24,000 nt of DNA from Nitratidesulfovibrio sp. 1201_IL3209. Its GTDB lineage: Bacteria > Desulfobacterota > Desulfovibrionia > Desulfovibrionales > Desulfovibrionaceae. Both the position numbers and the translations under genes were made by a program. Of the stretch, positions 7,035-24,000 are shown in pieces (position 1 is the first letter of the stretch; each line of letters opens with the position of its first letter). The stretch covers positions 1,317 to 25,316 of the forward strand of contig NZ_JBAIYT010000015.1 in the NCBI RefSeq assembly GCF_036763125.1, written 5' to 3'. The notes under the pieces are model-generated. The model did no database searches. It was not told where the DNA came from and saw only the letters and a program-made list of their open reading frames with translations.

Positions 7035-7050
7035 TGGCGTACCTCTGGTT

Positions 7051-7207: not shown

Positions 7208-7314
7208 GGGATCGGCCCGCGCATCCCTGTTGCGGCCGTGCGCGGGGTGCGGTAAGCGACGGCAAGCCAAGGACGACCACGGGCGCCCGCGCCCCATCCA
7301 CAGGAGACCATTCC

Positions 7315-7839
7315 ATGAAATACGGCAGCAAGGTGGCGGCCCGCGTCGAGGAACTGCTGCGCGAGCAACTCGAGGAACTGGGCGAGGACCCCGGCGCCAT
7401 CGGCGCACATGACATCGCGGCGCACATGCGCTGCGAGATATGGCCCGACGACACCATGATCTACATCTGGAAGGAAACCCCCATCCTGCGCGTGTCCTCG
7501 GAACAGCACGACGACGGCAGCGTGACCTGGCGCATGTTCACCCGTGACGACGAAGGCGACGGCTTCGCCTCCGATCCGGCCGGCAGCCTGACCCGCGACG
7601 ACGGCCCCCTGCTGGACATGGACCGCGCCTGCGCTTCCCGCGCCGCCGCCCACGGTGAGGACGAGGACGACGACGAGGATGACGACGACGATCTGGACGA
7701 GGACATCCTGTCCGCCCTGCTGGACGACGAGGATTCCGGCAACGACGACCTCGGCGACGAGGACGACGAGGATGATGGCGACGAGGATGACGGCGACGGG
7801 GGCGATGACCGCCGCAACGGCGGCTACCCGGTGCAGTAG
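7315..7839 (+). CDS. Hypothetical protein with extremely acidic (poly-Asp/Glu) C-terminal tail, 174 aa
   Basis: Good SD AGGAGA at 7302..7307, 7 nt before the ATG. The N-terminal ~100 aa have ordinary composition. The C-terminal ~60 aa are D/E-rich (EDEDDDEDDDDDLDEDIL...DEDDEDDGDEDDGDGGDD). I recognise no family. Confidence 0.7.
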   Translation: MKYGSKVAARVEELLREQLEELGEDPGAIGAHDIAAHMRCEIWPDDTMIYIWKETPILRVSSEQHDDGSVTWRMFTRDDEGDGFASDPAGSLTRDDGPLLDMDRACASRAAAHGEDEDDDEDDDDDLDEDILSALLDDEDSGNDDLGDEDDEDDGDEDDGDGGDDRRNGGYPVQ

Positions 7840-9274: not shown

Positions 9275-9381
9275 GGTCCCCCCGGCACTGTCCCGGCAAC
9301 ACGGGGCCACTCGGACCCCGTTGCGCATGCGCCCGCCGCGTCACGATCCCCGATGGCGGCCGACAACATTGATGGTCATAT

Positions 9382-10928: not shown

Positions 10929-11020
10929 GATGTTCTCCCCGTTCTTCGGGTATCGTTGATGGCGTGGGATGCCGCACGCGCGGCCGGGAAGACGAAAGGA
11001 ACGGGAGCGCGGCGCGGAGG

Positions 11021-11254
11021 CTACACGGCCTCGACGCACTTCACCTCGGGCACTTCCTTCAACACCATGCGTTCCACGCCGCCCTTCAGGGTCTGCTGCG
11101 ACATGGGACAGCCCTTGCACGCGCCGGTCAGGCGCACGCGGACCACGCCGTCGGCGGTGATGTCCACCAGTTCGACGTCGCCTCCGTCGCCTTGGAGATA
11201 GGGACGGACCTTGTCGAGGGCGGCCTGCACCCTTTCGCGGATGGCATCGGACAT
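11021..11254 (-). CDS. NifU C-terminal domain (Nfu-type) Fe-S cluster scaffold/carrier protein, 77 aa
   Basis: VRPYLQGDGGDVELV ... GACKGCPMS CxxC motif, typical of Nfu/NifU-C. Strong SD AGGAGG before ATG 11254. The rest of the 390-aa track ORF overlaps the next gene out of frame. Confidence 0.88.
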   Translation of the reverse strand: MSDAIRERVQAALDKVRPYLQGDGGDVELVDITADGVVRVRLTGACKGCPMSQQTLKGGVERMVLKEVPEVKCVEAV

Positions 11255-11445: not shown

Positions 11446-12345
11446 CTAGGCCGGGGCCACGTCCACCGCGAACTTCTTCAAAAAGCCCACGGGATTGTAG
11501 CTTTCCTTGGCCTGCCGCAGGCCCATGTCGTCCAGGTCCTGCTCGCGGTTGATGTACCGGAAGCTCATGGCGTGCTCGCGCGCGTACAGGTTGTTGATGG
11601 CCTGGTACACGCCGCGATACTCCGGCTTGGCCTTCTCGAAGTGCACCACCAGGGTCTCGTCGTCCAGCCGTTCGCCCACGGTGTAGGCGATCATCTTCCC
11701 GTCCACGTACAGCGCCCCGCCGGAAAGCCCGGGAATCCTGTCCCAGTGCTCCAGCACCCTGCGCACGGCGGTGTTCTCCGCCACCAGCGCGTGCGATTCG
11801 TCGCACTCGCGCCACTTGCACCATTCCTCCTGCATGTCCAGAACCGCCTCGATGCAGTCCGGCGTCATGGGGTGGTACTCGTGCGGATAGGCCTTCAGAA
11901 AGCCGTTCACGTGGTTCTTCTTCTTGTGGAACCTGTTGCCCTTCAGTTCCGCCAGATCCTGCGCGGCATACAGGTAGTCCCACTGGCCGCGCGCCTCGGC
12001 CAGCGCCACCCGGTCGCCCAGGGTCCGCTGCCAGTGCGCGGCCAGCGACTCGGGCACGCGGATGAACCGGGCGCCCGCGCCCAGCAGCGCGCACCGGCTC
12101 CAGTCCGCATCCAGCCACGGCCCCACGGGCGCCCACCATACGGGTTCCGGCCTGGTCTGGCGCAGCCAGCACAACCCGTGCGCAAAGGTCCATTCCAGGC
12201 CGTAGTATTCGGCCCAGCCCCAGACGTTGGTGAAACTGTAGTCCGACGCGCGCTGCGGCGTGCGGGCGAAAAGGTCGAGGTACTCGGCCATGCGGTCGAG
12301 CGAGACGGGCCGGAACTCTCCGGGGGTCAACTCACTGTCGGTCAT
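11446..12345 (-). CDS. DUF2156 (MprF C-terminal / LPG-synthase_C-like, tandem GNAT fold) domain protein, 299 aa
   Basis: Motifs I associate with standalone DUF2156 proteins: GNRFHKKKNHVNGF, EEWC, FEKA...GVYQ, DLDDMGLRQAKESYNP. SD AAGGAG sits 9 nt before ATG 12345. The start overlaps the upstream MATE gene by 14 nt. Confidence 0.72.
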   Translation of the reverse strand: MTDSELTPGEFRPVSLDRMAEYLDLFARTPQRASDYSFTNVWGWAEYYGLEWTFAHGLCWLRQTRPEPVWWAPVGPWLDADWSRCALLGAGARFIRVPESLAAHWQRTLGDRVALAEARGQWDYLYAAQDLAELKGNRFHKKKNHVNGFLKAYPHEYHPMTPDCIEAVLDMQEEWCKWRECDESHALVAENTAVRRVLEHWDRIPGLSGGALYVDGKMIAYTVGERLDDETLVVHFEKAKPEYRGVYQAINNLYAREHAMSFRYINREQDLDDMGLRQAKESYNPVGFLKKFAVDVAPA

Positions 12346-13753
12346 GCGAGGCAACTCCTTGTGGCGCGGCCTTGCGGCCGTTGCGCCGGATCATGCTGAA
12401 CCGGCTCCAGTCACGCGTGCAGAACAGCCACAGCATGACCGAAGACTGGAACACCTGGGAAACGAACATGGCGAGGAATATCCCCGCCGCATCCCGCCAC
12501 ACCACGTGGCCCATGACCCATGCCAGCGGCAGCCGCACGAACCACGTGGCCGAACCGTACACCAGGAAGGAATACAGGGTGGCGCCCGCGCCGGTCATGA
12601 CCCCGCCAAGGGTCATGCTGGCCACGGTGAAGGGGATGGAGACGAGGTTGTAGCGCAGATAGCTGACCACCTGGACGGCCACGGCGGGTTCCGGGGCCAG
12701 CCAGGCGGCGATGTCGGCCGTCCAGGGCCAGAGCAGCACGGCGAACACGCTCATGGAGGCGCAGCCGATGCCCAGCAGGCGCAGGCTGACCCGGAAGGCT
12801 TCCGGCTTGCGGCCCGCGCCCAGCAGATGGCCCACCAGCACCGAGGCGGTCATGTTGAAGGCCAGCGCTGGCAGGAAGATGAACGATTCCACGCGCATGC
12901 CCGCCGTCATGCCCGCCAGGGCGGCCACGCTGCCCGCGGGCAGCGAGGCGGTGATGGAAAACAGCACCAGGTAGCCGAGGTTCCACATGATCTGGAGCCC
13001 GGCGGCGGGCGCGGCCACGCGGATGAGATAGGGCGCGCCGCGCCGCATCCAGCGCAGGGGAGGGAACGAGGCGCGTTGCAGCAGTTCCCGGTCGCGGACC
13101 AGCATGCCCACGTTCAGCGCGGCCCCGATCATGATGGCGACGAAGGTGGCCCAGGCCACCCCGGCATACCCGTAGGCGGGCAGGCCCCACAGCCCGAGGC
13201 CGAAGCCCAGGGTGGCCCCGGCGTTGACGGCGCAGACCACCACCATGGACACCAGCGGCGCGATCATGCGCTTGCGGGCGCGGAACACCGCCCCGGTGAT
13301 GGTGAACAGGTAGTTGGCGGGCAGGCCCAGCAGGTACACCTTCCAGAAGTAGGAGGCCACCGGCATGATGGGCTCGGGCACCTGCAACAGGCGCAGGAAG
13401 GGCTCGATGGTGGCTAGGCCCAGCAGCATGATGCCCACGCCCACCGTGCACCCGCCCGCCAGCACCATGCCCGCGTAGCGGCGCGCGCGCGGCAGCAGGC
13501 CCGCCCCCAGCGCCTGGCTGATGGCGGCAACCCCGGCGTTGGCACCGGCCACGGCCACCACCAGCAGAAAGAACAGACACTGCGAGACGAGGCCGATGGC
13601 GGCCTGCACCTCCGGCTGGATGCGGCCCGCCACCCAGACGTCGGTGAACCCGATGAGGAAATGGAAGACCATCATCAGCATCTGGGGCCATGTCAGCCGC
13701 CAGATGCCGCGATAGGAAGCGTCGTCGCCCTGCGGGCGCGCGTGCTGCGACAT
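12332..13753 (-). CDS. MATE-family (MOP superfamily) transporter, 473 aa
   Basis: About 12 hydrophobic segments. MATE-like N-terminus (IWRLTWPQMLMMVFHFLIGFTDVWVAGRI). Internal duplication-like second half. The start at ATG 13753 (MSQHARPQ) was chosen because the upstream extension is low-complexity. Confidence 0.85.
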   Translation of the reverse strand: MSQHARPQGDDASYRGIWRLTWPQMLMMVFHFLIGFTDVWVAGRIQPEVQAAIGLVSQCLFFLLVVAVAGANAGVAAISQALGAGLLPRARRYAGMVLAGGCTVGVGIMLLGLATIEPFLRLLQVPEPIMPVASYFWKVYLLGLPANYLFTITGAVFRARKRMIAPLVSMVVVCAVNAGATLGFGLGLWGLPAYGYAGVAWATFVAIMIGAALNVGMLVRDRELLQRASFPPLRWMRRGAPYLIRVAAPAAGLQIMWNLGYLVLFSITASLPAGSVAALAGMTAGMRVESFIFLPALAFNMTASVLVGHLLGAGRKPEAFRVSLRLLGIGCASMSVFAVLLWPWTADIAAWLAPEPAVAVQVVSYLRYNLVSIPFTVASMTLGGVMTGAGATLYSFLVYGSATWFVRLPLAWVMGHVVWRDAAGIFLAMFVSQVFQSSVMLWLFCTRDWSRFSMIRRNGRKAAPQGVASHDRQ

Positions 13754-13968
13754 CTCGTGCCGTCCGTTCGGTTCGGTGGTGGGCGTCGCACCCGCCCGCA
13801 GGCATGATCCGGCGCGGGCCAGGGGATGCGGCGTGCTGGCCGTGCCCGTGGCCGGACGCGCGAATCCCGTGGCCGCACCGGAAAACCGGGGGCCGACGGG
13901 AAGGCGCGCCGCCGCGCCCGGCGCCGGTGCGTCACACCTGCCGGGCGCGGCCACGAAGAGATAGGCGC

Positions 13969-14967
13969 TTACGGCCTGCTGTCAATGACGTCGCCCGCAT
14001 GCAGGCGATGTTCGTGGCCCTGGGCGTCCACCAGGCGCAGCAGGCCGTCGGGGTCCACGTCGGCCACCAGCCCTTCCACCACGCCGTGGGGCGTGCCCAC
14101 CCGCAGGGGGGTGCCCACGATGGCGGAAAGCTCCTTCCAGCGGGCGATGACCGGGCCGGGGTCGCCCTCGCGCAGGGCGGCGTACCAGTGTTCCGCCCGC
14201 TCCAGGAAGGCGCGCAGCACGTCCACCCGCGATACCGGGCGGCCCAGTTCCGCCGCCAGCGAGGTGGCCGTGGCGCGCAGTTCTTCGGGCAGGTCCCCGG
14301 CGCTGGTGTTCACGTTGATGCCCGCGCCGGTGACCACGTGGGACACCGTGTCGGCCACCAGCGCCACCTCGGTCAGGTTGCCCGACACCTTGCGGCCGTG
14401 CAGCAGCACGTCGTTGGGCCATTTGGCGCGCGGGGCAAGGCCGGTGACCTCGGCCACCGCCTCGGCCACGGCCACGGCGGTCATCAGGGTGACCAGCGGC
14501 GCGGCCTGCGGGGCAAGGCGCGGCCGCAGCACCAGCGAGACGTACACCCCCACCCCGGCGGGCGATGCCCAGGCCCGCCCGGCGCGCCCGCGCCCGGCGG
14601 TCTGTTCGGAAGCCGCCACCACGACGCCTTCGGGCGCCCCGCCAAGGGCCAGCAGCGCGGCCTCGCGGTTAGTGGAATCGGTGGAGCCGTGCAGGACGAA
14701 ATCGCCCCGGCCGAAACAGCCGGTGCGCAGCCCCTGCCGGACGGCGGCCACGGTGAGCACGTCGGCCTCGGCCAGCAGCCGGTAGCCCCGGCGGGTCATG
14801 GCCTCGATCTGGTGCCCTTCCGCGCGCAGCGCCCGCACGTGCTTGGCCACGGCGGCCCGGCTCACGCCGAGCAGCCGCGAAAGTTCCTCTCCCGATCGCC
14901 AGTTGCCGCCCGCTTCGCGCAACATGGCGAACACACGCCCCTTCGTGGTCGTCCTGTCAGTGTCCAC
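13969..14967 (-). CDS. birA: Bifunctional biotin-[acetyl-CoA-carboxylase] ligase / biotin operon repressor, 332 aa
   Basis: N-terminal winged HTH (SGEELSRLLGVSRAAVAKHVRALRAEG). Ligase core STNREA...EQTAGRGRAGRAW and KWPNDV. The start is uncertain: GTG 14967 lies only 5 nt from the operator and lacks an SD. An internal ATG at 14925 (MLREAGG) is the alternative. Confidence 0.88.
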   Translation of the reverse strand: MDTDRTTTKGRVFAMLREAGGNWRSGEELSRLLGVSRAAVAKHVRALRAEGHQIEAMTRRGYRLLAEADVLTVAAVRQGLRTGCFGRGDFVLHGSTDSTNREAALLALGGAPEGVVVAASEQTAGRGRAGRAWASPAGVGVYVSLVLRPRLAPQAAPLVTLMTAVAVAEAVAEVTGLAPRAKWPNDVLLHGRKVSGNLTEVALVADTVSHVVTGAGINVNTSAGDLPEELRATATSLAAELGRPVSRVDVLRAFLERAEHWYAALREGDPGPVIARWKELSAIVGTPLRVGTPHGVVEGLVADVDPDGLLRLVDAQGHEHRLHAGDVIDSRP

Positions 14968-14972: not shown

Positions 14973-15005
14973 TTGTAAACCATCAGGCAATTGCTTGGTT
15001 GACAA
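14973..15005. promoter_or_regulatory. BirA operator (bioO) in the birA/bioB divergent region
   Basis: TTGTAAACC-N15-GGTTGACAA. The arms are 8/9 complementary and match the well-known BirA box TTGTAAACC-N14/15-GGTTTACAA. The right arm contains TTGACA (14999..15004), which could serve as the bioB -35, with TACTCG 17 nt downstream. Confidence 0.8.
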
Positions 15006-15063: not shown

Positions 15064-16191
15064 ATGAACCCCCTGCTGGAACGTTTGCGCGCGCGCCTTT
15101 CGGACACCATTCCCCCCGGAACGGAGACTTCTTGCGCATCGCCAAGCCGCGCCCACGCGGCCAAAGGCTCCCCGTCCGGCATCACCGGAGAGGAGGCGCT
15201 GGCCGTGGCGCGGCTGCCCGCGTCCGACATCCTGGACATCCTGGCCGTGGCGCAGGCCGTGCGTTCGGCCCGCAAGGGACCGCTGGCGACCACCTGCGGC
15301 ATCGTCAACGCAAAGTCGGGCCGCTGCGGCGAGGACTGCGCCTTCTGCGCCCAGTCGTCGCACCACGACACGGGCGCTCCGGTGCATGGGCTGCTCGGCC
15401 CCGACGCACTGCTGCGCCATGCGGAGGAACTGGCCCGCGCGGGCGTGCGCCGTTTCGGCATCGTGACCAGCGGCAACGCCCTTTCGGAGCGTGAATTCGA
15501 CGCGGTCTGCCATGCGGCGCGCCTGTTGCGCGAACGGGTGGACATCGGCCTATGCGCCTCCCTGGGGCAGCTCGCCACGGGGTCCGCCGCATCGAAAGGA
15601 CCGGACGGACGGGGAGAACGAGCGCGCCGCCTGAAGGACGCAGGCATTTCCAGCTACCACCACAATCTGGAAACGGCCAGAAGTTTTTTCCCGCAGGTAT
15701 GTACCACGCACTCCTACGACGACGATGTCGCCACCGTGCGCGAGGCCGCCCGGGCGGGGTTGCGCACCTGTTGCGGCGGCATCCTGGGCCTTGGCGAAAC
15801 GTGGGAACACCGCGTGGAACTGGCTCTGACCCTGCGTGAACTGAACGTGGATTCCATACCGCTGAACTTTCTGCATCCCATTCCGGGCACACGGCTGGGC
15901 CACCGCAGTCCGTTGCCGCCCATGGAGGCGTTGCGGGCCATCGCCATATTCCGCCTGCTGCACCCGGAGCGTGACGTCCTGGTGTGCGGCGGGCGGGAAA
16001 CCACCCTGGGCCCGTGGCAGTCGTGGGTGTTCGCGGCCGGGGCCAACGGCCTGATGGTGGGCAACTACCTGACCACGGCGGGCCGCGCCCTTTGCGACGA
16101 CATGGAGATGCTGGCCGCGCTGGGCGTGGGCGGCGTTGCCGCGCCCGGCGGGACGGCCGCCGGGCCTGACGGCGGGGAGGCGCGGGCATGA
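15064..16191 (+). CDS. bioB: Biotin synthase (radical SAM), 375 aa
   Basis: CGEDCAFCAQ radical-SAM CxxxCxxC motif. YHHNLET, CCGGILGLGE and NFLHPIPGT motifs. AGGAG lies upstream. Confidence 0.94.
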   Translation: MNPLLERLRARLSDTIPPGTETSCASPSRAHAAKGSPSGITGEEALAVARLPASDILDILAVAQAVRSARKGPLATTCGIVNAKSGRCGEDCAFCAQSSHHDTGAPVHGLLGPDALLRHAEELARAGVRRFGIVTSGNALSEREFDAVCHAARLLRERVDIGLCASLGQLATGSAASKGPDGRGERARRLKDAGISSYHHNLETARSFFPQVCTTHSYDDDVATVREAARAGLRTCCGGILGLGETWEHRVELALTLRELNVDSIPLNFLHPIPGTRLGHRSPLPPMEALRAIAIFRLLHPERDVLVCGGRETTLGPWQSWVFAAGANGLMVGNYLTTAGRALCDDMEMLAALGVGGVAAPGGTAAGPDGGEARA

Positions 16192-17681
16192 GCGGACAGG
16201 GTACGGAAAACGGCATGTCCGAGGGGGCCATCGTCCCCTCCACCGACGCCACCCGGCGGCTGCGCGCGCTGGACAAGGCCCACGTGTGGCATCCCTTCAC
16301 CCAGATGCGCGACTGGCTGGCCGCCGACCCGCTGATCATCGCCGCCGCCGAGGGCAACCGGCTCATCGACACCGACGGCGTGTCCTACCTGGACGGCGTG
16401 TCCTCGCTGTGGACCAACGTACACGGGCACCGCCACCCCAGGCTGGACGCGGCCGTGCGGGCGCAACTGGACAAGGTGGCCCACACCACCCTGCTGGGCC
16501 TGGGCAGCGAGCCGTCCATCGAACTGGCGGCGCGGCTGGCCGCCATCGCTCCGCAGGGACTGACGCGGGTGTTCTATTCCGACAGCGGGTCCACGTCCGT
16601 GGAAGTGGCGCTGAAGATTGCCTTCCAGTTCCACCGCCAGGCCCCGGCGCACCTGGGCGGCGACGCCCGGCGCACCCGCTTTCTCAGCCTGAGCAACGCC
16701 TATCACGGCGACACCGTGGGGGCCGTGGCCCTGGGCGGCATGGACCTGTTCCACGCCATCTACGCGCCGCTGCTGTTTGACACGCTGAAGGCGGAAAGCC
16801 CCCACTGCTACCGCTGCCCGTTCGGGCGGCAGGCCGGGGACTGCGGCCGGGAATGCATCGCCCACGTGGAAGACCTGTTCGCCCGCCACGGGCACGAGAT
16901 GTGCGCCGCCGTGGTGGAACCGCTGGTGCAGGGCGCGGCGGGCATGCTGTTGCAGCCGCCGGGCTGGCTGCGCCGGGTGCGCGAACTGTGCGACGCGCAC
17001 GGCGTGTTCCTGGTGGCCGACGAGGTGGCCGTGGGCTTCGGCAAGACCGGCACCCTGTTCGCCTGCGAGCAGGAAGGGGTGACGCCCGACTTCCTGTGCC
17101 TGGCCAAGGGCATCTCCGGCGGCTACCTGCCGCTGGCCGCCACCCTGACCGCCGAGCGGGTGCACGACGGCTTCCTGGCCCGCCACGAGGAGTTGCGCAC
17201 CTTCTTCCACGGCCACACCTACACCGGCAACCCGCTGGCCTGCGCGGCGGCCATCGCCTCGCTGGACGTGTTCGAGGAAGAACGGGTCATGGAACGGCTG
17301 CAACCGAAAATCGCCCGGCTGGCCGCGCGGCTGGAAACGCTGCGCGATCTGCCCCACGTGGGGGACATCCGGCAGCGCGGGGTGATGACCGGCATCGAGT
17401 TGGTGCGCGACCGGGAGACCAGGGAGTCCTACGACATGGCCCTGCGCGTGGGCCACCGGGTGACCCTGGAGGCGCGGCGGCGCGGGGTGATCGTCCGCCC
17501 GCTGGGCGACGTGATGGTGCTCATGCCGCCGCTGTCCATCACCGACGAGGAGATCGACCTGCTGGTGGACGCCACGGGCGAGGCCATCCGCGCCGTGACC
17601 GAGCGCGGGGCCACCGGTGGATTGGACGGGCTGGCCGGGCTGGACAGGCTTCCGGGCGCCAGCGGCCCGGCGGGAGCATGA
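16188..17681 (+). CDS. bioA: Adenosylmethionine-8-amino-7-oxononanoate aminotransferase, 497 aa
   Basis: HVWHPFTQM, SDSGSTSVEVALK, ADEVAVGFGKTG (PLP Lys region) and HGHTYTGNPLACAAA motifs. ATGA overlap with the bioB stop. Confidence 0.94.
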   Translation: MSGQGTENGMSEGAIVPSTDATRRLRALDKAHVWHPFTQMRDWLAADPLIIAAAEGNRLIDTDGVSYLDGVSSLWTNVHGHRHPRLDAAVRAQLDKVAHTTLLGLGSEPSIELAARLAAIAPQGLTRVFYSDSGSTSVEVALKIAFQFHRQAPAHLGGDARRTRFLSLSNAYHGDTVGAVALGGMDLFHAIYAPLLFDTLKAESPHCYRCPFGRQAGDCGRECIAHVEDLFARHGHEMCAAVVEPLVQGAAGMLLQPPGWLRRVRELCDAHGVFLVADEVAVGFGKTGTLFACEQEGVTPDFLCLAKGISGGYLPLAATLTAERVHDGFLARHEELRTFFHGHTYTGNPLACAAAIASLDVFEEERVMERLQPKIARLAARLETLRDLPHVGDIRQRGVMTGIELVRDRETRESYDMALRVGHRVTLEARRRGVIVRPLGDVMVLMPPLSITDEEIDLLVDATGEAIRAVTERGATGGLDGLAGLDRLPGASGPAGA

Positions 17682-18076
17682 CAGGCATGCCCGGCAGCAG
17701 GGATACGGCAGCACCGGCTTCCGCCTGCGCGCGCCGCGCCGTGCGTTGCGGCGTGTTCCGGTTCGACCCGGCCCACCCGCTGTTCGCGGACCATTTCCCC
17801 GGCGCGCCGGTGGTGCCGGGGTCGTGCATCGTGCTGGCCTTCGCGGACGAGGCGGCGCGCTGGGCGGACGGCCCCGCCGGGCCGCCGCGCCCGATACGTG
17901 AAGCGCGCGGGTTCCGCTTCCGGCGCTTCGTCACGCCGGGGGACTACGCCTTCCGCATGGAACGCACCGATGACGGCCTGCGCTGTTCGCTGCATGCGCT
18001 GGCCCCGGCGGTCGGCGAAGAGGGATGCGTCGCCGCACCCCCCGCCCCGCTGGTGACCGGGGTGCTGGCATGGTAG
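17678..18076 (+). CDS. FabZ/FabA-like hotdog-fold (3-hydroxyacyl-ACP) dehydratase homolog, 132 aa
   Basis: DHFPGAPVVPG matches the FabZ HFPxxPVMPG catalytic-His motif. FRFRRFVTPGD matches the hotdog kFr..V.PGD motif. ATGA overlap with the bioA stop, with GGGAG upstream. Confidence 0.72.
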   Translation: MTGMPGSRDTAAPASACARRAVRCGVFRFDPAHPLFADHFPGAPVVPGSCIVLAFADEAARWADGPAGPPRPIREARGFRFRRFVTPGDYAFRMERTDDGLRCSLHALAPAVGEEGCVAAPPAPLVTGVLAW

Positions 18077-18915
18077 CCCGCGCCGCCCTGACGGATTCCG
18101 CCCTGACGCATTCTGCCCTGCGCGGCCCGGCGCTCATCGCCGGTGGCTCGTGCGAACTGGGGCTGGCCCTCGGCGCAGCGCTGGCCGCCGGCGGCGTGGC
18201 CGTGGCCCTGACCGCGCGCGATGAGGCGGGCGCGGCGCGCATCCGCGCCGCGCTGCCGGACGCCGTGGTGCTGCGCCTGCACGCGCGCGGGCCGGAACAG
18301 GGCAGCGCGCCCGAAGATTTCACGCCCTCGACGGCGGCCGCAAGCCATGCCGAAGACGATGCCCCGGAAACCCTGCCCGAACGTGCCCGCACCTCGCTGG
18401 GGTCCGCGCCCCGGCTGTTCGTGGACCTGCTGCATTCGCGGTTCGAAGCGCTGCTGGCCGGGGCGGACCCTGCCGACATCGACCTGTGGGCCGCGCGCGA
18501 CATCGCCTTCCGCGCCCGGCTGCTGCGCGCCGTAAGCCGGTCCATGCTGGCCGGGCGCGACGGGCGGTGCGTGTTCGTCTCGTCCTCCGCCGCCGAACGG
18601 GCCGCGCCGGGGCAGGGCTACTACGCCGCCGCCAAGCTGGCCGGAGAAGCCCTGTACCGCGCCGTGGGCGTGGAACTGGCCCCGCGCGGGGTCACCGCCT
18701 GCTCGCTGCGGCTGGGCTGGCTGGAGGCGGGCCGGGGCGCGCCGTTCCTGCAATCGCGCGCCGCCAACGCCCCCCTGCCGTCCACCCGGCGCGTCGTAAC
18801 CGTTGCCGAGGCCGTGCAGACCCTGCGCTTTCTGCTGTCCGCCCCGGCTGCGGCCATCAACGCCACCACCCTGACCTGCGACGGCGGCTTCGGCGCGCTG
18901 AAACCGGCCTGCTGA
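18070..18915 (+). CDS. Short-chain dehydrogenase/reductase, FabG-like (3-oxoacyl-ACP reductase homolog), 281 aa
   Basis: N-terminal Rossmann segment ALIAGGSCELGLALGAALA. Catalytic SSSAA ... YYAAAK (Ser / YxxxK). C-terminal TLTCDGGF. The start ATG overlaps the upstream stop (ATGGTAG). Confidence 0.82.
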   Translation: MVARAALTDSALTHSALRGPALIAGGSCELGLALGAALAAGGVAVALTARDEAGAARIRAALPDAVVLRLHARGPEQGSAPEDFTPSTAAASHAEDDAPETLPERARTSLGSAPRLFVDLLHSRFEALLAGADPADIDLWAARDIAFRARLLRAVSRSMLAGRDGRCVFVSSSAAERAAPGQGYYAAAKLAGEALYRAVGVELAPRGVTACSLRLGWLEAGRGAPFLQSRAANAPLPSTRRVVTVAEAVQTLRFLLSAPAAAINATTLTCDGGFGALKPAC

Positions 18916-18979
18916 TCCCGCACCGGCGCGGAAGTACCTTCGCCGGAATATTCCCATCACCCCCACGGACAGGAACGCC

Positions 18980-19396
18980 ATGCCCTCACATACCCCCCAG
19001 GAACTGCACGACATCGCGGTCGCGGTAGCCGCGCTGGTGGCCCCCATCTTCGACGTGGACGCCGCCAGCCTGTCGCCCGCCACGCGGCTGATGGCCGACC
19101 TGCCCTGCGAATCCATCGACCTGCTGGAAATAGGCGCCGGGCTGAACCGCCACTTTGGTATCCCGGTGCGCGACGCCGCCGCCTTCCTCACCGACCTGCG
19201 CATCCACGTGCTGGAGGCGGAACGCCATGGCGAATCCCCGGAAGCCCGGCTGGCGCGGGAGTACCCGCACCTGCCCGCCGCGCGCGTGGCGGAAATCCTG
19301 GCCGACGTGCGCGTGCCGGGCGCGCCGCCGGTGCTGACCATCGGCGACGTGGCCGCCTATGTGGCGTGGGCGCTGGCACGGCACACGGGCCGATAG
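18980..19396 (+). CDS. Acyl-carrier-protein-like protein, unusually long, 138 aa
   Basis: LMADLPCESIDLLEIGAGLNRHFGI aligns by eye with the ACP DLGxDSLDxVEL helix II region. The Ser of CESID is the putative phosphopantetheine site. AGGAA lies 5 nt upstream of the ATG. Confidence 0.7.
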   Translation: MPSHTPQELHDIAVAVAALVAPIFDVDAASLSPATRLMADLPCESIDLLEIGAGLNRHFGIPVRDAAAFLTDLRIHVLEAERHGESPEARLAREYPHLPAARVAEILADVRVPGAPPVLTIGDVAAYVAWALARHTGR

Positions 19397-19431
19397 GCCT
19401 GACCGTCCCCGCAGCAGTGGCCGCCAAACAC

Positions 19432-20772
19432 ATGCAGCCCCGTTTCCGCCCTCCCCATTCCCCCCGCCGCGTGGCCGTCACCGGCGTGAGCGCGGTGACG
19501 CCCCTGGGGCATACCCCGCAGGACGTGGCCCGCGCCATCCGCGACGGGCACAGCCCGTTCCGCCATGCCGTGGCCCTGCCCGGCGCGGCCTGCGCGCCCG
19601 CGCGGAACTTCGACGAGGCGGCGGCCACCGGACGCTGGCGGCACCGCCGCTACCTTTCGCGCGGCGGGCTGCTGGCGCTGGCCTCGGCCCTGGCCGCCAC
19701 CCGGCAGGCCGGATACGCCTGCGGCGACGGAACCGACGGTGCGGTGGGCGACGGCGGCACCCCGCCCCCGCTCCCCTTTCCGGACGGCACCGCGCTGGTG
19801 GCCGCCAGCGGCCCCAACATGGACGTGGGGGCCGACTTTCCGGCGGCCTGCGGACGAATCAGGCCGCCGCACGACACCCCGCCGGGGCTTGAGCACCCCG
19901 ATCTGGACGCGCTGTGGATGCTGCGCTGGCTGCCCAACACCGTCGCCTCGGCCGTGGCCATGCGCTGCGGAATCCGGGGCGAAGGACTGGTGCTGGGCAC
20001 GGCCTGCGCCGCCTCGTTGCAGGCCGTGGGCGAGGCCGCCCGGCGGGTGCGCTGGGGCCTTGCCCCGGCGGCGCTGGCCGTGGGCGGCGATTCGCGCCTG
20101 TCGGAAGGGGGCCTTCTGGGCTACGCCCGCGCCGGGGCCATCCAGCGCGACCTGGACCTCGCCGATGCAACGGCCCCCCACATGGCCTGCCGCCCCTTCG
20201 ACAGGGCGCGGCGCGGCTTCGTGCCCGGCGAAGGAGGCGCGGCCTTCGTGCTGGAACCGCTGGACGCGGCGCTGGCGCGCGGGGCCACGCCGCTGGCCGA
20301 AATCCTGGGCATGGGGGCCACGCTGGACGGACACGCCCTGACCGCGCCGGAGCCCGACGCCCGCCGGGCCGAGGCCGCCGTGCGCGGCGCGCTGGCCGAG
20401 GCGGGGCTTGCCCCCGGCGACGTGCACTGGGTAGCGGCCCACGGCACCGGCACCGCCCTCAACGACGCGGCGGAAATCCGCCTGCTGGAACGGGTGTTCG
20501 CCAATGCGGGCCACGCGCCCGCCGTCACCGCCGTGAAGTCGTGGACCGGGCACTGCGCCTCGGCCTGCGGCGCGGTGGAACTGGCCGTGCTGCTGGCCTG
20601 CGCGGCGGACGGCTTTCTGCCGCCGGTGCGCAACCTGTCCGCGCCGGAAAGCGGGCGGCTGGACTTCGTGCGCGAAATGCGCCCCCTGCCCGGTACCGGG
20701 GGTGGTTCCGTCGGGCTGCTGCTCAACTTCGGCTTCGGCGGGCAGAACGCGGCGCTGGTGGTGCGACTGTGA
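19432..20772 (+). CDS. Beta-ketoacyl-ACP synthase, KAS I/II (FabF/FabB) type, 446 aa
   Basis: RRVAVTGVSAVTPLG N-terminus. Active-site LGTACAAS (Cys), AAHGTGT (His) and VKSWTGHCASACG (Lys/His) give a Cys-His-His triad. The start is uncertain: ATG 19432 or GTG 19417, and neither has a clear SD. Confidence 0.88.
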   Translation: MQPRFRPPHSPRRVAVTGVSAVTPLGHTPQDVARAIRDGHSPFRHAVALPGAACAPARNFDEAAATGRWRHRRYLSRGGLLALASALAATRQAGYACGDGTDGAVGDGGTPPPLPFPDGTALVAASGPNMDVGADFPAACGRIRPPHDTPPGLEHPDLDALWMLRWLPNTVASAVAMRCGIRGEGLVLGTACAASLQAVGEAARRVRWGLAPAALAVGGDSRLSEGGLLGYARAGAIQRDLDLADATAPHMACRPFDRARRGFVPGEGGAAFVLEPLDAALARGATPLAEILGMGATLDGHALTAPEPDARRAEAAVRGALAEAGLAPGDVHWVAAHGTGTALNDAAEIRLLERVFANAGHAPAVTAVKSWTGHCASACGAVELAVLLACAADGFLPPVRNLSAPESGRLDFVREMRPLPGTGGGSVGLLLNFGFGGQNAALVVRL

Positions 20773-21248
20773 CCCTTTTCCGCCATGCCCTTCCGGAGGA
20801 GACCCCCGCCCGCTTCCTGCTGCTGGACCGGGTGGACCGCTGCGACGCCGCGGGGGCCACGGGCCGCCGCGCCTTCGCCGGCGCACCCCCATGGCAGGGG
20901 CTGGAAGCCATGGCCCAACTGGCCGCGCTGCACGCCCGCTGGTCCTCCGGCTTTTCCCTCCACGCCTTTCTGCTGACGGTACAGGAATGCAACTGGCCGC
21001 CTGCCGACGTTTTGCACGGCCCCTCCCGCATCCGGGCCGACCTGCTGGCCCAAAGCGAGCGCGCCGCCACCTACGCCACGACCATCACGCCCATTCCGCA
21101 GGTGCCCGGCGCAGACACCCCGCCCGCGCCCCCGAGCATGGCCGCCACCCTGATCATCGGCCGCACGGCCTACGACACCCGCTTCAACGGCGACGTACTC
21201 GCCGCCCGTTATCGAGAGATATTCGCATGGCTGACCACAACCCCCTGA
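20769..21248 (+). CDS. Hypothetical protein, probable divergent hotdog-fold (FabZ-like) subunit, 159 aa
   Basis: FLLLDRV and GLEAMAQLAAL resemble the FabZ LLDRV and EAMAQ (catalytic Glu) motifs, but there is no HFP His motif. The GTG start overlaps the KS stop (GTGA), with GGTGGTG 5 nt upstream. The 3' end overlaps bioF by 22 nt. Confidence 0.58.
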   Translation: MTLFRHALPEETPARFLLLDRVDRCDAAGATGRRAFAGAPPWQGLEAMAQLAALHARWSSGFSLHAFLLTVQECNWPPADVLHGPSRIRADLLAQSERAATYATTITPIPQVPGADTPPAPPSMAATLIIGRTAYDTRFNGDVLAARYREIFAWLTTTP

Positions 21249-22597
21249 CCGCCGGACCCACGCCCGGCCCCTCCCCCGCCGCCGCGCCATCCCCGGCCGC
21301 TCCCGGCCTGCTGGCCGCGCGCCTGACCCTGCGGATGGAGGAATTGCACGCCGCCGGTCTTGGCCGCAGCGCCCCACTGCTGGACGGACTGCCCGCCTCC
21401 GCCGCCGTCCCTTCCGGAGACATCGGGAATGCCCCCTCCCCGGCGCTGGTGCACATGGACGGCCGTCCGCTGCTCCATTTCGCGGGCAACGACTACCTTG
21501 GCCTGGCCGCCGACGGGGCGTGGCGGGCCACGGTGGCCGCCTGCTTCGCGCGCCATGCGCCCTCGGGCACGGCCTCGCGCCTGGCCGCCGGGCACACCGC
21601 GCTGGCGGCGGACGCCGAGGCCGCGTGGGCCGAATACTTCGGCTATGCGGAATGCCTGTTCCTGCCCAGCGGCTACCAGGCCAACCTGGCCCTGCTCTGG
21701 GGCCTGCTGGGCCACGGTGACGCGGTATTCCTGGACCGCCGGGTGCACGCCAGCATGGCCCATGCCCTGCCCCCCACCGGGGCGCGGCTGCACACCCACC
21801 GCCACGCGGACATGGACGACCTGTCGCGCCGCCTGGCCGCATGGCGGGCCGCAGGCAACGACGGTCCCCCCGCGCGGGGTACCGGTTGCGCGCCCCAGCC
21901 CGTGGTCCTGGCCGAATCGCTGTACAGCATGGACGGCACCCTGCCGGACATGGCCCGGCTGGGCGCGGTGGCCCGCGAGCACGGGGCCTTCGTCATCGTG
22001 GACGAGGCCCACGCCTTCGGCGCGCTGGGCGCTGGCGGCCGCGGCCGGGCGCACGGCGTGGCCGACGCCGCCGTGGGCACGCTGGGCAAGGCGCTGGGGC
22101 TGTTCGGGGCGTTCCTGCTGCTGCCGCGCGGCACCCGGAATGCGCTGGAAAACCTGGCCTCGCCGCTGATCCACTCCACCGCCCTGCCGGAGGCGCACGC
22201 CGCCTGCTGCCTGGCCCTGCTGGACCTGCTGCCCCGGCTGGACGACCGCCGCCATCACCTCGCCGCGCTGGGTGCGGCCCTGCGCGCCGGATTGCGCGCC
22301 GAAGGCATGCCGGTACGCGAGGGCGCGCACGTGGTCTGCGTGGACGTGGGCGACGAGGCCCGCTGCACCCGCCTTGCCGCGAAGCTGCGCACACCCGCTG
22401 GCGGCGGCCCCGGCGTGCTGGCCCTGGCCGCGCGCCACCCCACCGTGGGGCGCGGCGCGGCCGTGCTGCGCCTGGGCCTTACCGCCCTGCACCGGGTGGA
22501 CGACGTGGCCCGCTGCGTGGACCTGCTGGCCCGCGCCTGGAAGGAAGAGGAAGAGCGGGGCGCTGCCCCGCACCACACGACCGGAGAATCCTCATGA
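21227..22597 (+). CDS. bioF: 8-amino-7-oxononanoate synthase, 456 aa
   Basis: FAGNDYLGLA, SGYQANLA, DEAHAFGALG and the GTLGKALG PLP-lysine motif. Start ATG 21227 (MADHNPL). Confidence 0.92.
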   Translation: MADHNPLTAGPTPGPSPAAAPSPAAPGLLAARLTLRMEELHAAGLGRSAPLLDGLPASAAVPSGDIGNAPSPALVHMDGRPLLHFAGNDYLGLAADGAWRATVAACFARHAPSGTASRLAAGHTALAADAEAAWAEYFGYAECLFLPSGYQANLALLWGLLGHGDAVFLDRRVHASMAHALPPTGARLHTHRHADMDDLSRRLAAWRAAGNDGPPARGTGCAPQPVVLAESLYSMDGTLPDMARLGAVAREHGAFVIVDEAHAFGALGAGGRGRAHGVADAAVGTLGKALGLFGAFLLLPRGTRNALENLASPLIHSTALPEAHAACCLALLDLLPRLDDRRHHLAALGAALRAGLRAEGMPVREGAHVVCVDVGDEARCTRLAAKLRTPAGGGPGVLALAARHPTVGRGAAVLRLGLTALHRVDDVARCVDLLARAWKEEEERGAAPHHTTGESS

Positions 22598-23340
22598 ACA
22601 CTACGCACGCAGCCCCCTCCCGCGCCCTGTTCGTGGTGGGCACGGACACGGGCGTGGGCAAGACGGTGGTCTCCATGCTGCTGCTGCGCGAGCTGTTCGC
22701 GCGGGGGGAGCGGCCGTTCTACGCCAAGCCCATGCAGACCGGGTGCAGGGATCCGTACGACACGGACAGCGACGCGGCCTTCGTGTACCAGCACGTTCCG
22801 GAACTGGCCGGGCGCGACCCGGCGGAGGCGGTGGGGTGGTGCTTCGCGGCGCCCAAAGCTCCGCTCCACGCCGCGCGGGACGAACTGCGCGGCGTGGAGA
22901 CGGAAGACCTGGTGCGCAGTCTGGCATGTCTGCGCGGTGAACACGCCTCGCTGGTCCTCGAGGGCGCGGGCGGCCTGATGGTGCCGTTCACGCCGGAAGC
23001 CCTGTGCATCGACTGCATCCGGGCCGCCGACGCCCGTCCCGTGCTGGTGGCGCGGGCGGGGCTGGGCACCGTGAACCACACGCTCCTCTCGGTGGAGGCG
23101 CTGGTCCGGAGAGGGATGGAACCGGCAGGGATCGTTTTCGTTCACACCAAGGAACGTTCCGCATCCCCGGACCTTGTGCGGGACAACATGGAGGCGGTAG
23201 CCATGCTGTCCGGTTTTCCGGTGAGCGGCGTGGTGCCGCCCATCGAAAATCTGCTGCATCCGCCCGACGCCGCCTTCGCGCCGCTGCGGCGCATGCTCGA
23301 CGTGCTGGACGGGACGGACAGGGTGACGACGCCCTGCTGA
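22594..23340 (+). CDS. bioD: Dethiobiotin synthetase, 248 aa
   Basis: FVVGTDTGVGKT P-loop, LVLEGAGGLMVP, GTVNHTLL. ATGA overlap with the bioF stop. Confidence 0.92.
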   Translation: MNTTHAAPSRALFVVGTDTGVGKTVVSMLLLRELFARGERPFYAKPMQTGCRDPYDTDSDAAFVYQHVPELAGRDPAEAVGWCFAAPKAPLHAARDELRGVETEDLVRSLACLRGEHASLVLEGAGGLMVPFTPEALCIDCIRAADARPVLVARAGLGTVNHTLLSVEALVRRGMEPAGIVFVHTKERSASPDLVRDNMEAVAMLSGFPVSGVVPPIENLLHPPDAAFAPLRRMLDVLDGTDRVTTPC

Positions 23341-23352: not shown

Positions 23353-24000
23353 CTAGGCGTCAGGAAAAAACGCCATCAAGTCCGAAAGCTCTTCCCGGCG
23401 GCGGATCAGCCGGGGCTGCCCGTCCAGGCCGATGAGCACCTCGGCCGGGCGCAGCCGCTGGTTGTACGTGGAACTCATGGCGTAGCCGTAGGCCCCGGTG
23501 TCCAGCACGCCCAGGATGTCGCCCTCCTGGATGGCGGGCAGCGCACGTTCCCTGGCCATGATGTCGCCGCTCTCGCAGATGTTGCCCACCACGGTCTGGG
23601 GGTGCAGGGCCGCGTCGGGCGCGCCGCCCGCGCGGTAGACCTCGATGTCGTGGTGCGCGTCGTACATCACCGGGCGGGCCAGCACGTTGAAGCCAAGGTC
23701 GGTGCCCACGTAGCGGGTGGGGCCGTTGTGCTTGGTGGCGTGCACCGTGCCCAGCAGCAGGCCGCATTCGGCCACCACGTAGCGGCCCGGCTCGACGTAG
23801 AAGCGGCCCCTGTACCCGGTGCGTTCCGACCAGGCGGAAATGAGCGCGTGGAACCGTTCCGCCGTGGCGGCCAGGTCCAGCCGGGGCTGCTCTTCATACT
23901 TGCGGTAGGGAATGCCGAAGCCGCCGCCGAAGTCGATGACCTCCACGGTGTCGAACTTCTCCGCCACGGACAGCAGGAAGTCCGCCGCCGCCACGTACCC
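23353..24000 (-). CDS. lysA: Diaminopimelate decarboxylase (PLP-dependent, fold-type III), C-terminal part; 5' end lies beyond the window
   Basis: DFGGGFGIPY, FYVEPGRY, GNICESGD and DTGAYGYAMSSTYN motifs. The frame stays open to position 24000. A related ornithine/arginine-type decarboxylase cannot be fully excluded without the N-terminus. Confidence 0.8.
   Translation of the reverse strand, partial: GYVAAADFLLSVAEKFDTVEVIDFGGGFGIPYRKYEEQPRLDLAATAERFHALISAWSERTGYRGRFYVEPGRYVVAECGLLLGTVHATKHNGPTRYVGTDLGFNVLARPVMYDAHHDIEVYRAGGAPDAALHPQTVVGNICESGDIMARERALPAIQEGDILGVLDTGAYGYAMSSTYNQRLRPAEVLIGLDGQPRLIRRREELSDLMAFFPDA

Follow-up and report, generated by a model that had tools for sequence, protein, structure and literature searches.

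A Desulfovibrio-type biotin operon in Nitratidesulfovibrio with a likely private type II synthase for the pimeloyl chain

Results and discussion

The whole 24-kb stretch of DNA analysed (the window) carries what is in all likelihood a Desulfovibrio-type, BirA-controlled bio operon of Nitratidesulfovibrio, in which five genes inserted between bioA and bioF would constitute a private type II synthase making the pimeloyl moiety for BioF. A dedicated pimeloyl-ACP pathway feeding BioF, as put forward in the original prediction, is supported, and is already known rather than new: Rodionov et al. (2004) predicted the cassette as a pimeloyl-ACP route (PMC545781), and Trotter et al. (2023) found by RB-TnSeq that DVU2558:DVU2565 and DVU1220, a nitroreductase-like gene, are required without biotin in D. 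vulgaris Hildenborough, where bioC and bioH are absent (PMC10102598). Of the ten genes specifically required in that screen, nine cluster in DVU2558:DVU2565 and the tenth is DVU1220 (PMC10102598). The description of the cassette as uncharacterised therefore stands only in part, given that its biotin-specific requirement has been known since 2023; our literature search returned no biochemical study of the cassette proteins and no follow-up paper after the 2023 genetics. The count of three known pimelate routes needs revision, as four are now characterised, the diiron oxygenase BioE having joined in 2025 (PMC12704756).

Organisation and control of the operon

The features of the locus are as follows.

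13969..14967, minus strand: birA, bifunctional biotin ligase/repressor, divergent from the bio operon (HTH_11, BPL_LplA_LipB and BPL_C; birA_ligase 169 bits, above cutoff)
14973..15005, no strand assigned: BirA operator TTGTAAACC-N15-GGTTGACAA, between birA and bioB, upstream of bioB
15064..16191, plus strand: bioB, biotin synthase (TIGR00433 365 bits, above cutoff)
16188..17681, plus strand: bioA, DAPA aminotransferase (TIGR00508 548 bits, above cutoff)
17678..18076, plus strand: hotdog-1, putative ApeI-like half-dehydratase with predicted catalytic His39 (DHFPGAPVVPGS) (Pfam FabA/FabZ-like 23.6 bits, barely above cutoff)
18070..18915, plus strand: SDR, FabG-like 3-oxoacyl-ACP reductase (Pfam adh_short_C2 63 bits)
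18980..19396, plus strand: dedicated carrier protein, 138 aa, Ser45 (PP-binding 21.9 bits, cutoff 20.8)
19432..20772, plus strand: KAS I/II-type elongating ketosynthase (Pfam ketoacyl-synt N and C domains; NCBIfam fabF)
20769..21248, plus strand: hotdog-2, putative ApeP-like half-dehydratase with predicted catalytic Glu46 (GLEAMAQLAALH) (AlphaFold2 hotdog model; profile comparison with ApeP)
21227..22597, plus strand: bioF, 8-amino-7-oxononanoate synthase (TIGR00858 246 bits, the best family but below cutoff; Aminotran_1_2)
22594..23340, plus strand: bioD, dethiobiotin synthase (TIGR00347 127.7 bits, above cutoff)

The operon thus reads bioB-bioA-[hotdog1-SDR-ACP-KAS-hotdog2]-bioF-bioD, and the five-gene insert was located as predicted, with all five ORFs intact on the plus strand and ending in one terminal stop each. 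The junctions likewise agree with those proposed, namely ATGA (4-nt overlap) between bioA and hotdog-1, ATGGTAG (7-nt overlap) between hotdog-1 and the SDR gene, GTGA (4-nt overlap) between the ketosynthase and hotdog-2 genes, and a 22-nt overlap between hotdog-2 and bioF; gaps of 64 nt and 35 nt separate the carrier protein gene from the SDR and ketosynthase genes, respectively, and bioF and bioD meet at ATGA. Third-position GC is 0.85-0.90 in all five cassette genes, similar to the flanking bio genes, and terminator-like sites within the operon are in no excess (4 seen, 3.1 expected). Gene callers place the start of hotdog-1 three codons downstream (P0029, 129 aa).

The BirA operator is a perfect match, unique in the window (0 expected in 100 shuffles), to the consensus shared by the Desulfovibrio sites listed in PMC545781 (Table 1). 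The window ORFs that were scanned include no methyltransferase, alpha/beta-hydrolase, BioW, P450 or FabH-like gene, in line with the predicted lack of BioC, a BioH-type esterase, BioW, BioI and a FabH-like BioZ.

Ketosynthase, reductase and carrier protein

Pfam matches were obtained for four of the cassette proteins (FabA/FabZ-like, adh_short_C2, PP-binding and ketoacyl-synt N and C), hotdog-2 having neither a Pfam nor an NCBIfam match. The ketosynthase scores 232.7 bits against NCBIfam fabF, below the equivalog cutoff of 493.75, and retains Cys192, His337, Lys369 and His374 in alignments with FabF and its orthologs. Arg222, in the motif GGDSRL, is family-invariant in the ortholog alignment and sits at a FabF position that we take to line the pocket. 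The N-terminal third of the protein aligns poorly to FabF. In the SDR, Ser and Tyr185-x3-Lys189 are kept and the best PDB matches are FabG enzymes with the YaaaK motif aligned; the protein also bears a low-complexity insert that is lineage-specific in the ortholog alignment. The carrier protein motif DLPCESIDLLE (Ser45) is invariant in an alignment of 27 sequences and is accompanied by approximately 55 additional helical residues. Its AlphaFold2 model displays seven helices (pLDDT 89.7), for which the Foldseek matches are ACPs, with TM of about 0.8 on target length and weak E-values.

Compared with housekeeping FAS II, the FabF C-H-H-K, FabG S-Y-K and ACP serine residues are all kept, whereas scores against FabF, FabG, FabZ and AcpP fall far below the NCBIfam equivalog cutoffs, the SDR has an atypical cofactor loop, GGSCELG instead of TGxxxGxG, the carrier protein is nearly twice the length, and the dehydratase is probably distributed over two chains.

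Proposed route and choice of primer

We propose the following route, in which the choice of primer, the round count, the unprotected carboxylate, the heterodimeric dehydratase and the identity of the enoyl reductase are inferences. The holo-carrier protein would be malonylated on Ser45 by a housekeeping transacylase from outside the cassette, and the Cys-His-His ketosynthase may condense a malonyl primer bearing a free omega-carboxylate with malonyl-ACP to give 3-oxoglutaryl-ACP. The 3-keto group would then be reduced by the FabG-like SDR and dehydrated by a hotdog-1/hotdog-2 heterodimer, with His39 and Glu46 in a composite active site as in ApeI:ApeP. An enoyl reductase from outside the window, either a nitroreductase-like flavoprotein or a housekeeping enzyme, would end the round, and a second round would provide pimeloyl-ACP on its own carrier protein for use by BioF, the presumed consumer of the thioester supplied by the cassette. 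No methyl ester features in this route because BioC and BioH are absent from the window. We know of no characterised precedent for a KAS I/II enzyme taking a malonyl primer without decarboxylation, which counts against the malonyl-primer step.

As in the E. coli BioC-BioH pathway, two FAS-type rounds from a malonyl primer would give a C7 diacid thioester for BioF. BioC-BioH, however, hijacks housekeeping FAS II with a malonyl-ACP methyl ester, whereas the window has neither methyltransferase nor esterase and the cassette brings private enzymes and a carrier protein, presumably acting on a free omega-carboxylate. The BioZ system of alpha-proteobacteria shares with the cassette a dedicated ketosynthase in the bio cluster and a pimeloyl chain built without methyl esters; BioZ is a FabH-like KAS III, primed by glutaryl-CoA and dependent on housekeeping FAS, unlike the Cys-His-His KAS I/II enzyme here, which is accompanied by a cassette-encoded reductase, putative dehydratase and carrier protein.

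The same cassette could reach the same product by BioZ logic from a C5 diacid thioester, glutaryl-CoA or glutaryl-ACP, for which a single round of condensation and reduction would be enough. In BioZ organisms, housekeeping FAS enzymes complete the round, so unusual short intermediates would better account for a full private set of reductase, dehydratase and carrier protein. Also against a C5 primer, the ketosynthase is not a CoA-primed FabH-like KAS III, and none of the loci examined links the cassette to an acyltransferase, CoA ligase or lysine-catabolic gene. No sequence feature fixes the number of rounds, and the poorly aligned N-terminal third of the ketosynthase is the part that, in enzymes of the FabF type, helps to bind the primer. 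Together with the example of BioZ, for which a single condensation of glutaryl-CoA with malonyl-ACP is enough (PMC7645780; PMC12704756), these points leave a C5 primer an outside chance.

A dehydratase probably divided between two hotdog proteins

Returning to the malonyl-primed route, its dehydration step would rest on the two hotdog proteins, which are probably not two dehydratases but the two halves of one enzyme. The catalytic pair of FabZ is divided between them, with the His on hotdog-1 and the Glu on hotdog-2. In hotdog-1 the His matches that of FabZ and is invariant in 20 homologues, and Leu replaces the catalytic Glu; this position is L, Q, R or D among homologues, with E solely in the most distant members, and L, Q or D in the seven proteins from bio-cluster loci. 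Lacking the acid residue, hotdog-1 would need a partner, although the Asp in the bio-linked protein of L007 and the Glu in more distant homologues suggest that some hotdog-1 proteins might act alone. In hotdog-2, Glu46 is invariant across 67 diverse homologues, and the family profile places it on the FabZ Glu; the FabZ His has no counterpart in hotdog-2.

ApeI/ApeP has been described as a heterodimer that has one active site (PMC8041823). The hotdog-1 profile matches E. coli ApeI (E=0.0048, His aligned; weak by hhalign, probability 7%) and the hotdog-2 profile matches E. coli ApeP (E=6.6e-5; again weak, probability 64%), with no significant match in the cross-pair comparisons of hotdog-1 with ApeP and hotdog-2 with ApeI. 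Precomputed annotation of the hotdog-1 family contains PF22818 ApeI-like matches; the precomputed PF22818/PF22817 matches of the hotdogs were absent from our local Pfam scan. Taken together, the His/Glu split and the reciprocal matches suggest that hotdog-1 and hotdog-2 are probably the two subunits of a heterodimeric dehydratase that has one active site. As in the aryl-polyene type II PKS (ApeI:ApeP, PDB 6QSR), the cluster encodes two small hotdogs, of which the ApeI-like one bears the His and the ApeP-like one the Glu, and the ApeP-like gene lies immediately after, and overlaps, the ketosynthase gene. The two hotdogs have very little identity to ApeI:ApeP (BLAST E=0.003 and 0.13), the proposed product is a saturated C7 diacid and not a polyene, and the pairing here is predicted from sequence comparison.

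Hotdog-2 might instead be a hotdog thioesterase or transferase releasing or proofreading the pimeloyl chain, leaving hotdog-1 to act alone or with FabZ. Its AlphaFold2 model (hotdog fold, pLDDT 92) resembles FabZ and ApeI:P 6qsr_B in Foldseek, and by fold alone 4-hydroxybenzoyl-CoA thioesterases match it as well as FabZ does, the top hits including the Arthrobacter enzyme and the PA1618/PA5202 thioesterases, whose E-values are similar to those for FabZ. The missing Pfam assignment and the overlap with bioF would also suit such a role. Searched against PDB sequences, however, the hotdog-2 family profile retrieves FabZ dehydratases exclusively, with Glu46 on the FabZ Glu, and in the Ape pair it matches ApeP, not ApeI; hotdog-1 without its acid residue needs a partner, and free pimelate would require a BioW-type ligase, none of which is in the window. 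We accordingly regard this role as improbable.

Conservation and the enoyl reductase

The cassette belongs to a recurrent arrangement. The same gene order, at 36-47% protein identity, was found in MAG contigs from Desulfobacteraceae and Desulfosarcinaceae (L006, L007) and a metagenome contig (L008), a recurrence far beyond chance. The cassette also adjoins bioF in L009 and L012, and among the loci sampled, spanning at least two orders, it is always beside bioF, with which it is co-conserved. That it makes another lipid or polyketide (for instance an acyl chain resembling an aryl polyene or related to lipid A) and is merely located in the bio operon, as the aryl-polyene-type hotdog pair and the one distant hotdog-2 relative in a non-bio context (L014) might suggest, is hardly credible against its translational coupling to bioA and bioF, the upstream BirA operator, the constant neighbourhood of bioF, a ketosynthase and SDR nearer FabF and FabG than ApeO/ApeR and ApeQ, and the biotin-specific fitness defect, at pool level, of the D. 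vulgaris orthologs (PMC10102598).

Orthologs carry Nitratidesulfovibrio names, N. vulgaris Miyazaki F among them, Hildenborough being a strain of that species, and identity to neighbouring species is 55-94% per protein. In DVU2558:DVU2565 of Hildenborough, DVU2560 and DORF42491 are FabZ-like, DVU2561 is the reductase, DVU2562 the ACP and DVU2563 the KAS; the families between bioA and bioF, the divergent birA, the operator type and the genus are the same here. The window cassette is a further member of this cluster type, differing in sequence with no functional difference visible from it.

The predicted absence of an enoyl reductase is correct for the window. The published candidate for this step is a nitroreductase-like flavoprotein encoded away from the cluster in D. 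vulgaris (PMC10102598). Unlike in Hildenborough, where DVU1220 is implicated, no DVU1220-like gene was found in the 24-kb window. A nitroreductase-family gene lies within the cassette in three distant loci, and in Desulfobacterales-type cassettes it separates the carrier protein gene from that of the ketosynthase.

Beyond the published work, our analysis adds the split hotdog dyad, the ketosynthase residues with the invariant Arg, the motif and extension of the carrier protein, and the placement of the nitroreductase-like gene in the Desulfobacterales-type versions of the cassette.

Gene organisation and regulation of the cassette

Five open reading frames (ORFs) occupy 17678..21248 of the + strand between bioA and bioF, each in frame and with a single terminal stop. 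Four were assigned from Pfam and NCBIfam matches, and the fifth, hotdog-2, from the hotdog fold of its AlphaFold2 model.

Genes of the cassette
17678..18076, + strand, hotdog-1, FabA/FabZ-like protein (Pfam/NCBIfam)
18070..18915, + strand, SDR, protein with an SDR domain (Pfam/NCBIfam)
18980..19396, + strand, carrier protein, PP-binding (Pfam/NCBIfam)
19432..20772, + strand, KAS, with both ketoacyl-synthase domains, PF00109 and PF02801 (Pfam)
20769..21248, + strand, hotdog-2, no Pfam/NCBIfam match, hotdog fold in the AlphaFold2 model

The bioA/hotdog-1 and bioF/bioD junctions read ATGA, the KAS/hotdog-2 junction GTGA, and hotdog-1/SDR ATGGTAG (7-nt overlap), while hotdog-2 and bioF overlap by 22 nt; gaps of 64 and 35 nt separate the carrier-protein gene from SDR and KAS, respectively. 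In each of the five genes, GC at third codon positions is 0.85-0.90, equal to that of the flanking bio genes, and the cassette is flanked by bioB, bioA, bioF, bioD and divergent birA (Pfam/NCBIfam). Four terminator-like sites were found inside the operon against 3.1 expected from shuffled sequence, which is no excess. The gene content, boundaries and strand given in the original prediction were borne out by the ORFs, the domain matches and the hotdog-2 model, and the overlaps that it had listed (ATGA, ATGGTAG, GTGA and 22 nt) read exactly as claimed. Its statement that the window encodes no BioC-, BioH-type, BioW, BioI or FabH-like protein agrees with our scan of the window ORFs, in which no methyltransferase, alpha/beta hydrolase, BioW, P450 or FabH-like gene was detected; none of bioC, bioH, bioG, bioK, bioW, bioI and bioZ lies within the 24-kb window.

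A perfect palindrome, TTGTAAACC-N15-GGTTGACAA, is located at 14973..15005 between bioB and the divergently oriented birA, 59 nt before the bioB start and immediately upstream of birA. It is the sole copy in the window, with 0 expected by chance, and the BirA sites tabulated for Desulfovibrio follow the same consensus (PMC545781). The original prediction did not include this operator. A hotdog protein, a 3-oxoacyl-ACP reductase, an ACP, a KAS and a second hotdog protein encoded on one strand between bioA and bioF, with a BirA operator between divergent birA and bioB, make up the arrangement of a Desulfovibrio-type cassette. The remaining genes of the window are as follows.

Other genes in the window
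86..2032, + strand, hybrid-cluster (prismane) protein gene
about 2250..3162, + strand, 4Fe-4S ferredoxin-domain ORF following the prismane gene
3280..4557, Fe-alcohol dehydrogenase
4145..6328, PAS histidine kinase
6345..7457, - strand, Crp/cNMP-binding regulator
8018..9328, HD-domain protein with HDOD
9534..11120, glutamyl-tRNA synthetase family
11446..12354, LPG_synthase_C protein
12332..13954, MatE transporter
23353..23994, partial Orn/DAP decarboxylase, probably lysA, downstream of bioD

The prismane gene, the ferredoxin ORF and the Crp-type regulator presumably resemble the hcp-frdX/HcpR nitrosative-stress locus of D. vulgaris; the other genes listed are ordinary.

A putative split-dyad dehydratase

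Alignment with FabZ structures over the segment HPLFADHFPGAPVVPGSCIVLAFAD revealed that hotdog-1 keeps the catalytic His (His39) and carries Leu in place of the catalytic Glu. The His is invariant in 20 homologues, among which the Glu position is occupied by Leu, Gln, Arg or Asp, and by Glu in the most distant members only; of the seven hotdog-1 proteins encoded in bio-cluster loci, five have Gln there, one Leu and one Asp. Hotdog-2 holds Glu46 within GLEAMAQLAALH, invariant across 67 diverse homologues, and has Ala or Arg at the position of the FabZ His. FabZ dehydratases were the sole matches of the hotdog-2 family profile among PDB sequences, with Glu46 falling on the FabZ Glu; these matches came with a deeper profile, a 14-sequence profile having returned nothing relevant. 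Neither protein has the His and Glu of FabZ in the same chain, and the NCBIfam FabZ score was 25 bits against a cutoff of 113. Because the hhalign comparison of the hotdog-1 and hotdog-2 profiles was not significant (E=0.24), the His/Glu register rests on the separate FabZ alignment of each family.

In FabZ, each active site takes its His from one subunit and its Glu from the partner subunit; hotdog-1 and hotdog-2 would therefore form one complete site only, and only as a heterodimer. ApeI and ApeP, the hotdog proteins of aryl-polyene (APE) clusters, have been described as "heterodimeric dehydratases with a single active site" (PMC8041823). Precomputed tables list PF22818 (ApeI-like, for hotdog-1) and PF22817 for the hotdog proteins, but a local Pfam scan at E<=10 gave neither family for either protein, and this test was replaced by direct comparison with the APE cluster of E. 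coli CFT073. The hotdog-2 profile matched E. coli ApeP (E=6.6e-5 over 94 columns), placing its Glu on ApeP ALELMAQ, and the hotdog-1 profile matched ApeI (E=0.0048), placing its His on ApeI GHF, while the cross-pairs were not significant (E=0.47 and 0.15). The two hotdog genes of one cluster are each homologous to their own counterpart, a relationship that is weak but reciprocal. Comparison with the ApeI:P structure (PDB 6QSR) gave TM 0.58-0.61 for the hotdog-2 model (pLDDT 92) against 6qsr_B and E=0.01 for the hotdog-1 profile against 6qsr_A. Moreover, apeP of E. coli comes directly after apeO, a ketosynthase gene, and overlaps its end (L015:35684-37314, in the CFT073 cluster), just as hotdog-2 follows and overlaps KAS, and the KS and ApeP-like genes may be a conserved gene pair. 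From these alignments we infer that hotdog-1 and hotdog-2 constitute an ApeI/ApeP-like heterodimeric dehydratase with a split dyad and a single composite active site, a predicted assignment added by the present analysis.

Carrier protein, reductase and ketosynthase

The carrier protein belongs to a family of 120-140 aa in which DLPCESIDLLE, containing Ser45, is invariant, and it scores 21.9 bits against the PP-binding model (PF00550, cutoff 20.8). Its structural model (pLDDT 89.7) contains seven helices, one of which (45-59) starts at Ser45, in agreement with the four-helix bundle of an ACP, whose helix II opens at the phosphopantetheine Ser. A Foldseek search with this model returned ACPs only, with TM ~0.8 on target length and weak E-values. 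The protein is not the housekeeping AcpP, as evidenced by its length (138 aa versus ~78) and its TIGR00517 score (21.4 bits, cutoff 70.45). The model agrees with an ACP core extended by about 55 helical residues, and Arg74, His97 and Arg102 are conserved in the extra part; this anatomy of the enlarged carrier protein is likewise new to the present analysis.

In the SDR protein, Ser171/Ser172, Tyr185 and Lys189 are invariant and align to the catalytic residues of FabG, including its YaaaK motif, and the protein is therefore read as a ketoreductase rather than an enoyl reductase of the FabI/FabL type. FabI and FabL display Y-x6-K, and the SDR was rejected as the missing enoyl reductase because its Y-x3-K aligns to FabG. 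It scores 54.7 bits against the best FabG model, below the equivalog cutoff of 332. In place of the classical TGxxxGxG, its dinucleotide loop (residues 24-31) reads GGSCELG, or GAGSELA in a related metagenomic contig (L012). This atypical loop, conserved in the family, is a further observation added here.

KAS displays the thiolase-fold pair of N- and C-terminal domains (PF00109, PF02801), and its Cys192, His337, Lys369 and His374 align to FabF. Since the Cys-His-His triad and the conserved Lys are kept relative to FabF, KAS is assigned as a decarboxylating, elongating KAS I/II and not as a BioZ-like KAS III; no KAS III family was found among its matches. FabF structures gave the highest bit score (168), followed by ApeR (124) and ApeO (94). 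The FabF equivalog model TIGR03150 gave 232.7 bits (cutoff 493.75), aligning to residues 166-445 only; the first 165 residues align poorly to the FabF family model and include a lineage-specific insert of ~45 residues that is missing in Desulfobacterales-type orthologs. Variable Ala/Pro/Gly-rich low-complexity inserts, missing in these orthologs, occur across the Nitratidesulfovibrio cassette proteins, namely at residues ~75-125 of SDR (281 versus 229 aa) and ~95-150 of KAS (446 versus 402 aa), as well as in hotdog-1 and hotdog-2 homologues, and probably explain the poor N-terminal matches to family models. The KAS segment GGDSRL, with GGTEAA as its FabF counterpart, is invariant across five orthologs, and Arg222 falls on Ala193 of E. 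coli FabF in an alignment counted from the active-site Cys. If this FabF segment lines the acyl pocket, as we assume, Arg222 would be a candidate partner for the omega-carboxylate. We put forward this carboxylate-binding Arg as a hypothesis of the present analysis.

Conservation of the cassette and a nitroreductase-family gene

By name, the cassette proteins have their closest homologues in Nitratidesulfovibrio, N. vulgaris Miyazaki F among them. A locus search with a 14-sequence alignment returned seven genome loci. Three Nitratidesulfovibrio/Desulfovibrio loci (L001, L002 and L005) share the ten genes and their order, with 55-94% identity. Hotdog-1, SDR, carrier protein, KAS, hotdog-2, bioF and bioD are also kept in this order, with 36-47% identity, in a Desulfobacteraceae MAG (L006), a Desulfosarcinaceae MAG (L007) and a metagenome (L008). 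These latter loci contain an extra gene of ~224 codons, 62-74% identical among the three, encoding a member of the Nitroreductase family (PF00881, 106 bits).

Nitroreductase-family gene (PF00881) between carrier protein and KAS
L006:8100-8765
L007:1752-2423
L008:3753-4427

Neither the window nor the Nitratidesulfovibrio loci contain the gene. A nitroreductase remnant in the window was considered and rejected (tblastn E>0.8).

The metagenomic contig L012 encodes an ApeI-like hotdog protein, an SDR, a 129-aa PP-binding protein, a KAS, hotdog-2 and a BioF-like aminotransferase. An ORF encoding DUF4143 (L012:5847-6173) is inserted there between the SDR and carrier-protein genes. In a library of 1.84 billion proteins, the hotdog-2 family comprises 228 representative clusters at E<=0.001. 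A weak hotdog-2 relative (L014:8001-8462, E=8e-15 to the profile) follows a gene for a TPS-domain protein on another comparison locus, without bio or FAS-like neighbours, so that membership of the family is not confined strictly to biotin clusters.

Relation to published work and proposed pathway

An extended BirA-regulated biotin operon that includes five new genes linked to fatty-acid synthesis was reported by Rodionov et al. in 2004 for both Desulfovibrio genomes then available, and a novel pimeloyl-CoA pathway was proposed because bioC, bioH, bioG and bioW were missing (PMC545781). Using RB-TnSeq with avidin in D. vulgaris, which has neither bioC nor bioH, Trotter et al. in 2023 identified ten genes specifically important without biotin, nine of them clustered in DVU2558:DVU2565, including DVU2560 and DORF42491 (FabZ-like), DVU2561 (reductase), DVU2562 (ACP) and DVU2563 (KAS) (PMC10102598). 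The tenth is the nitroreductase-like DVU1220; related clusters of other Desulfobacterota contain a nitroreductase-like gene, and this protein has been put forward as a candidate for the enoyl reductase that the cassette lacks, the biochemistry of the pathway being still to be defined (PMC10102598). Literature searches by locus tags and for later work gave only Trotter 2023 and its preprint. The cassette is thus a rediscovery of a pathway already published as genetically validated, and the window adds one more member of the cluster, from the genus to which the model strain D. vulgaris Hildenborough, now a strain of N. vulgaris, belongs.

The statement in the original prediction that Desulfovibrio bio operons contain FAS-like genes was accurate (PMC545781). 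Of its statement that three routes to pimelate are known, the routes themselves (BioC-BioH, BioI-BioW and BioZ) stand, but the count is now four with the new BioE, according to a December 2025 paper that makes no mention of Desulfovibrio (PMC12704756). Its central proposal, a dedicated pimeloyl route to BioF, was right, in agreement with the 2004 prediction (PMC545781) and with the biotin-specific requirement, which has been published for D. vulgaris only (PMC10102598).

The reading with most support is an operon repressed by BirA, whose private mini-synthase makes the pimeloyl moiety on its own carrier protein for BioF; gene content, coupling, operator, catalytic residues, split dyad and the conservation alongside bioF were observed directly. 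The carrier protein would be phosphopantetheinylated by the housekeeping AcpS and malonylated by the housekeeping FabD, and a malonyl primer, kept as free diacid, would undergo two rounds of elongation, with dehydration by the hotdog-1/hotdog-2 heterodimer. For enoyl reduction, the pathway may depend either on a nitroreductase-like flavoprotein whose gene lies elsewhere or on a housekeeping reductase, and the omega-carboxylate may be held by conserved basic residues (KAS Arg222 and carrier-protein Arg74, His97 and Arg102). The full scheme would amount to a fifth, self-contained pimeloyl route, in which malonyl-ACP is elongated twice with a free omega-carboxylate on a private enlarged carrier protein by means of a split-dyad ApeI/ApeP-type heterodimer and a nitroreductase-fold enoyl reductase; we regard it as possible rather than probable. 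Its outline is already published as a hypothesis, and the present analysis contributes no more than the heterodimer and the candidate residues.

The main rival, a C5 diacid primer with one round of elongation, differs from this scheme in the primer only. Hotdog-2 could instead be a thioesterase, given that its fold resembles 4-hydroxybenzoyl-CoA-type thioesterases; this likeness is one of fold alone, and we consider this minor rival unlikely beside the alignment of Glu46 to the FabZ Glu. An unrelated product of the cassette is likewise unlikely, set against the biotin-specific requirement in D. vulgaris.

The predictions made here for the pimeloyl mini-synthase, namely His39 and Glu46, each on its own chain, KAS Arg222 and the extension of the carrier protein, offer direct handles for mutagenesis and reconstitution. 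The biotin pathway is otherwise universal and varies in the synthesis of its precursor; four other routes have been worked out biochemically, whereas the Desulfovibrio-type cassette has genetic support and a chemistry yet to be solved. Its solution would reveal the means by which a type II synthase deals with a charged omega-carboxylate that has no methyl-ester disguise. It would also show whether enoyl-ACP reduction can be catalysed by a nitroreductase-fold protein, in which case this flavoprotein would represent a new class of such enzymes.
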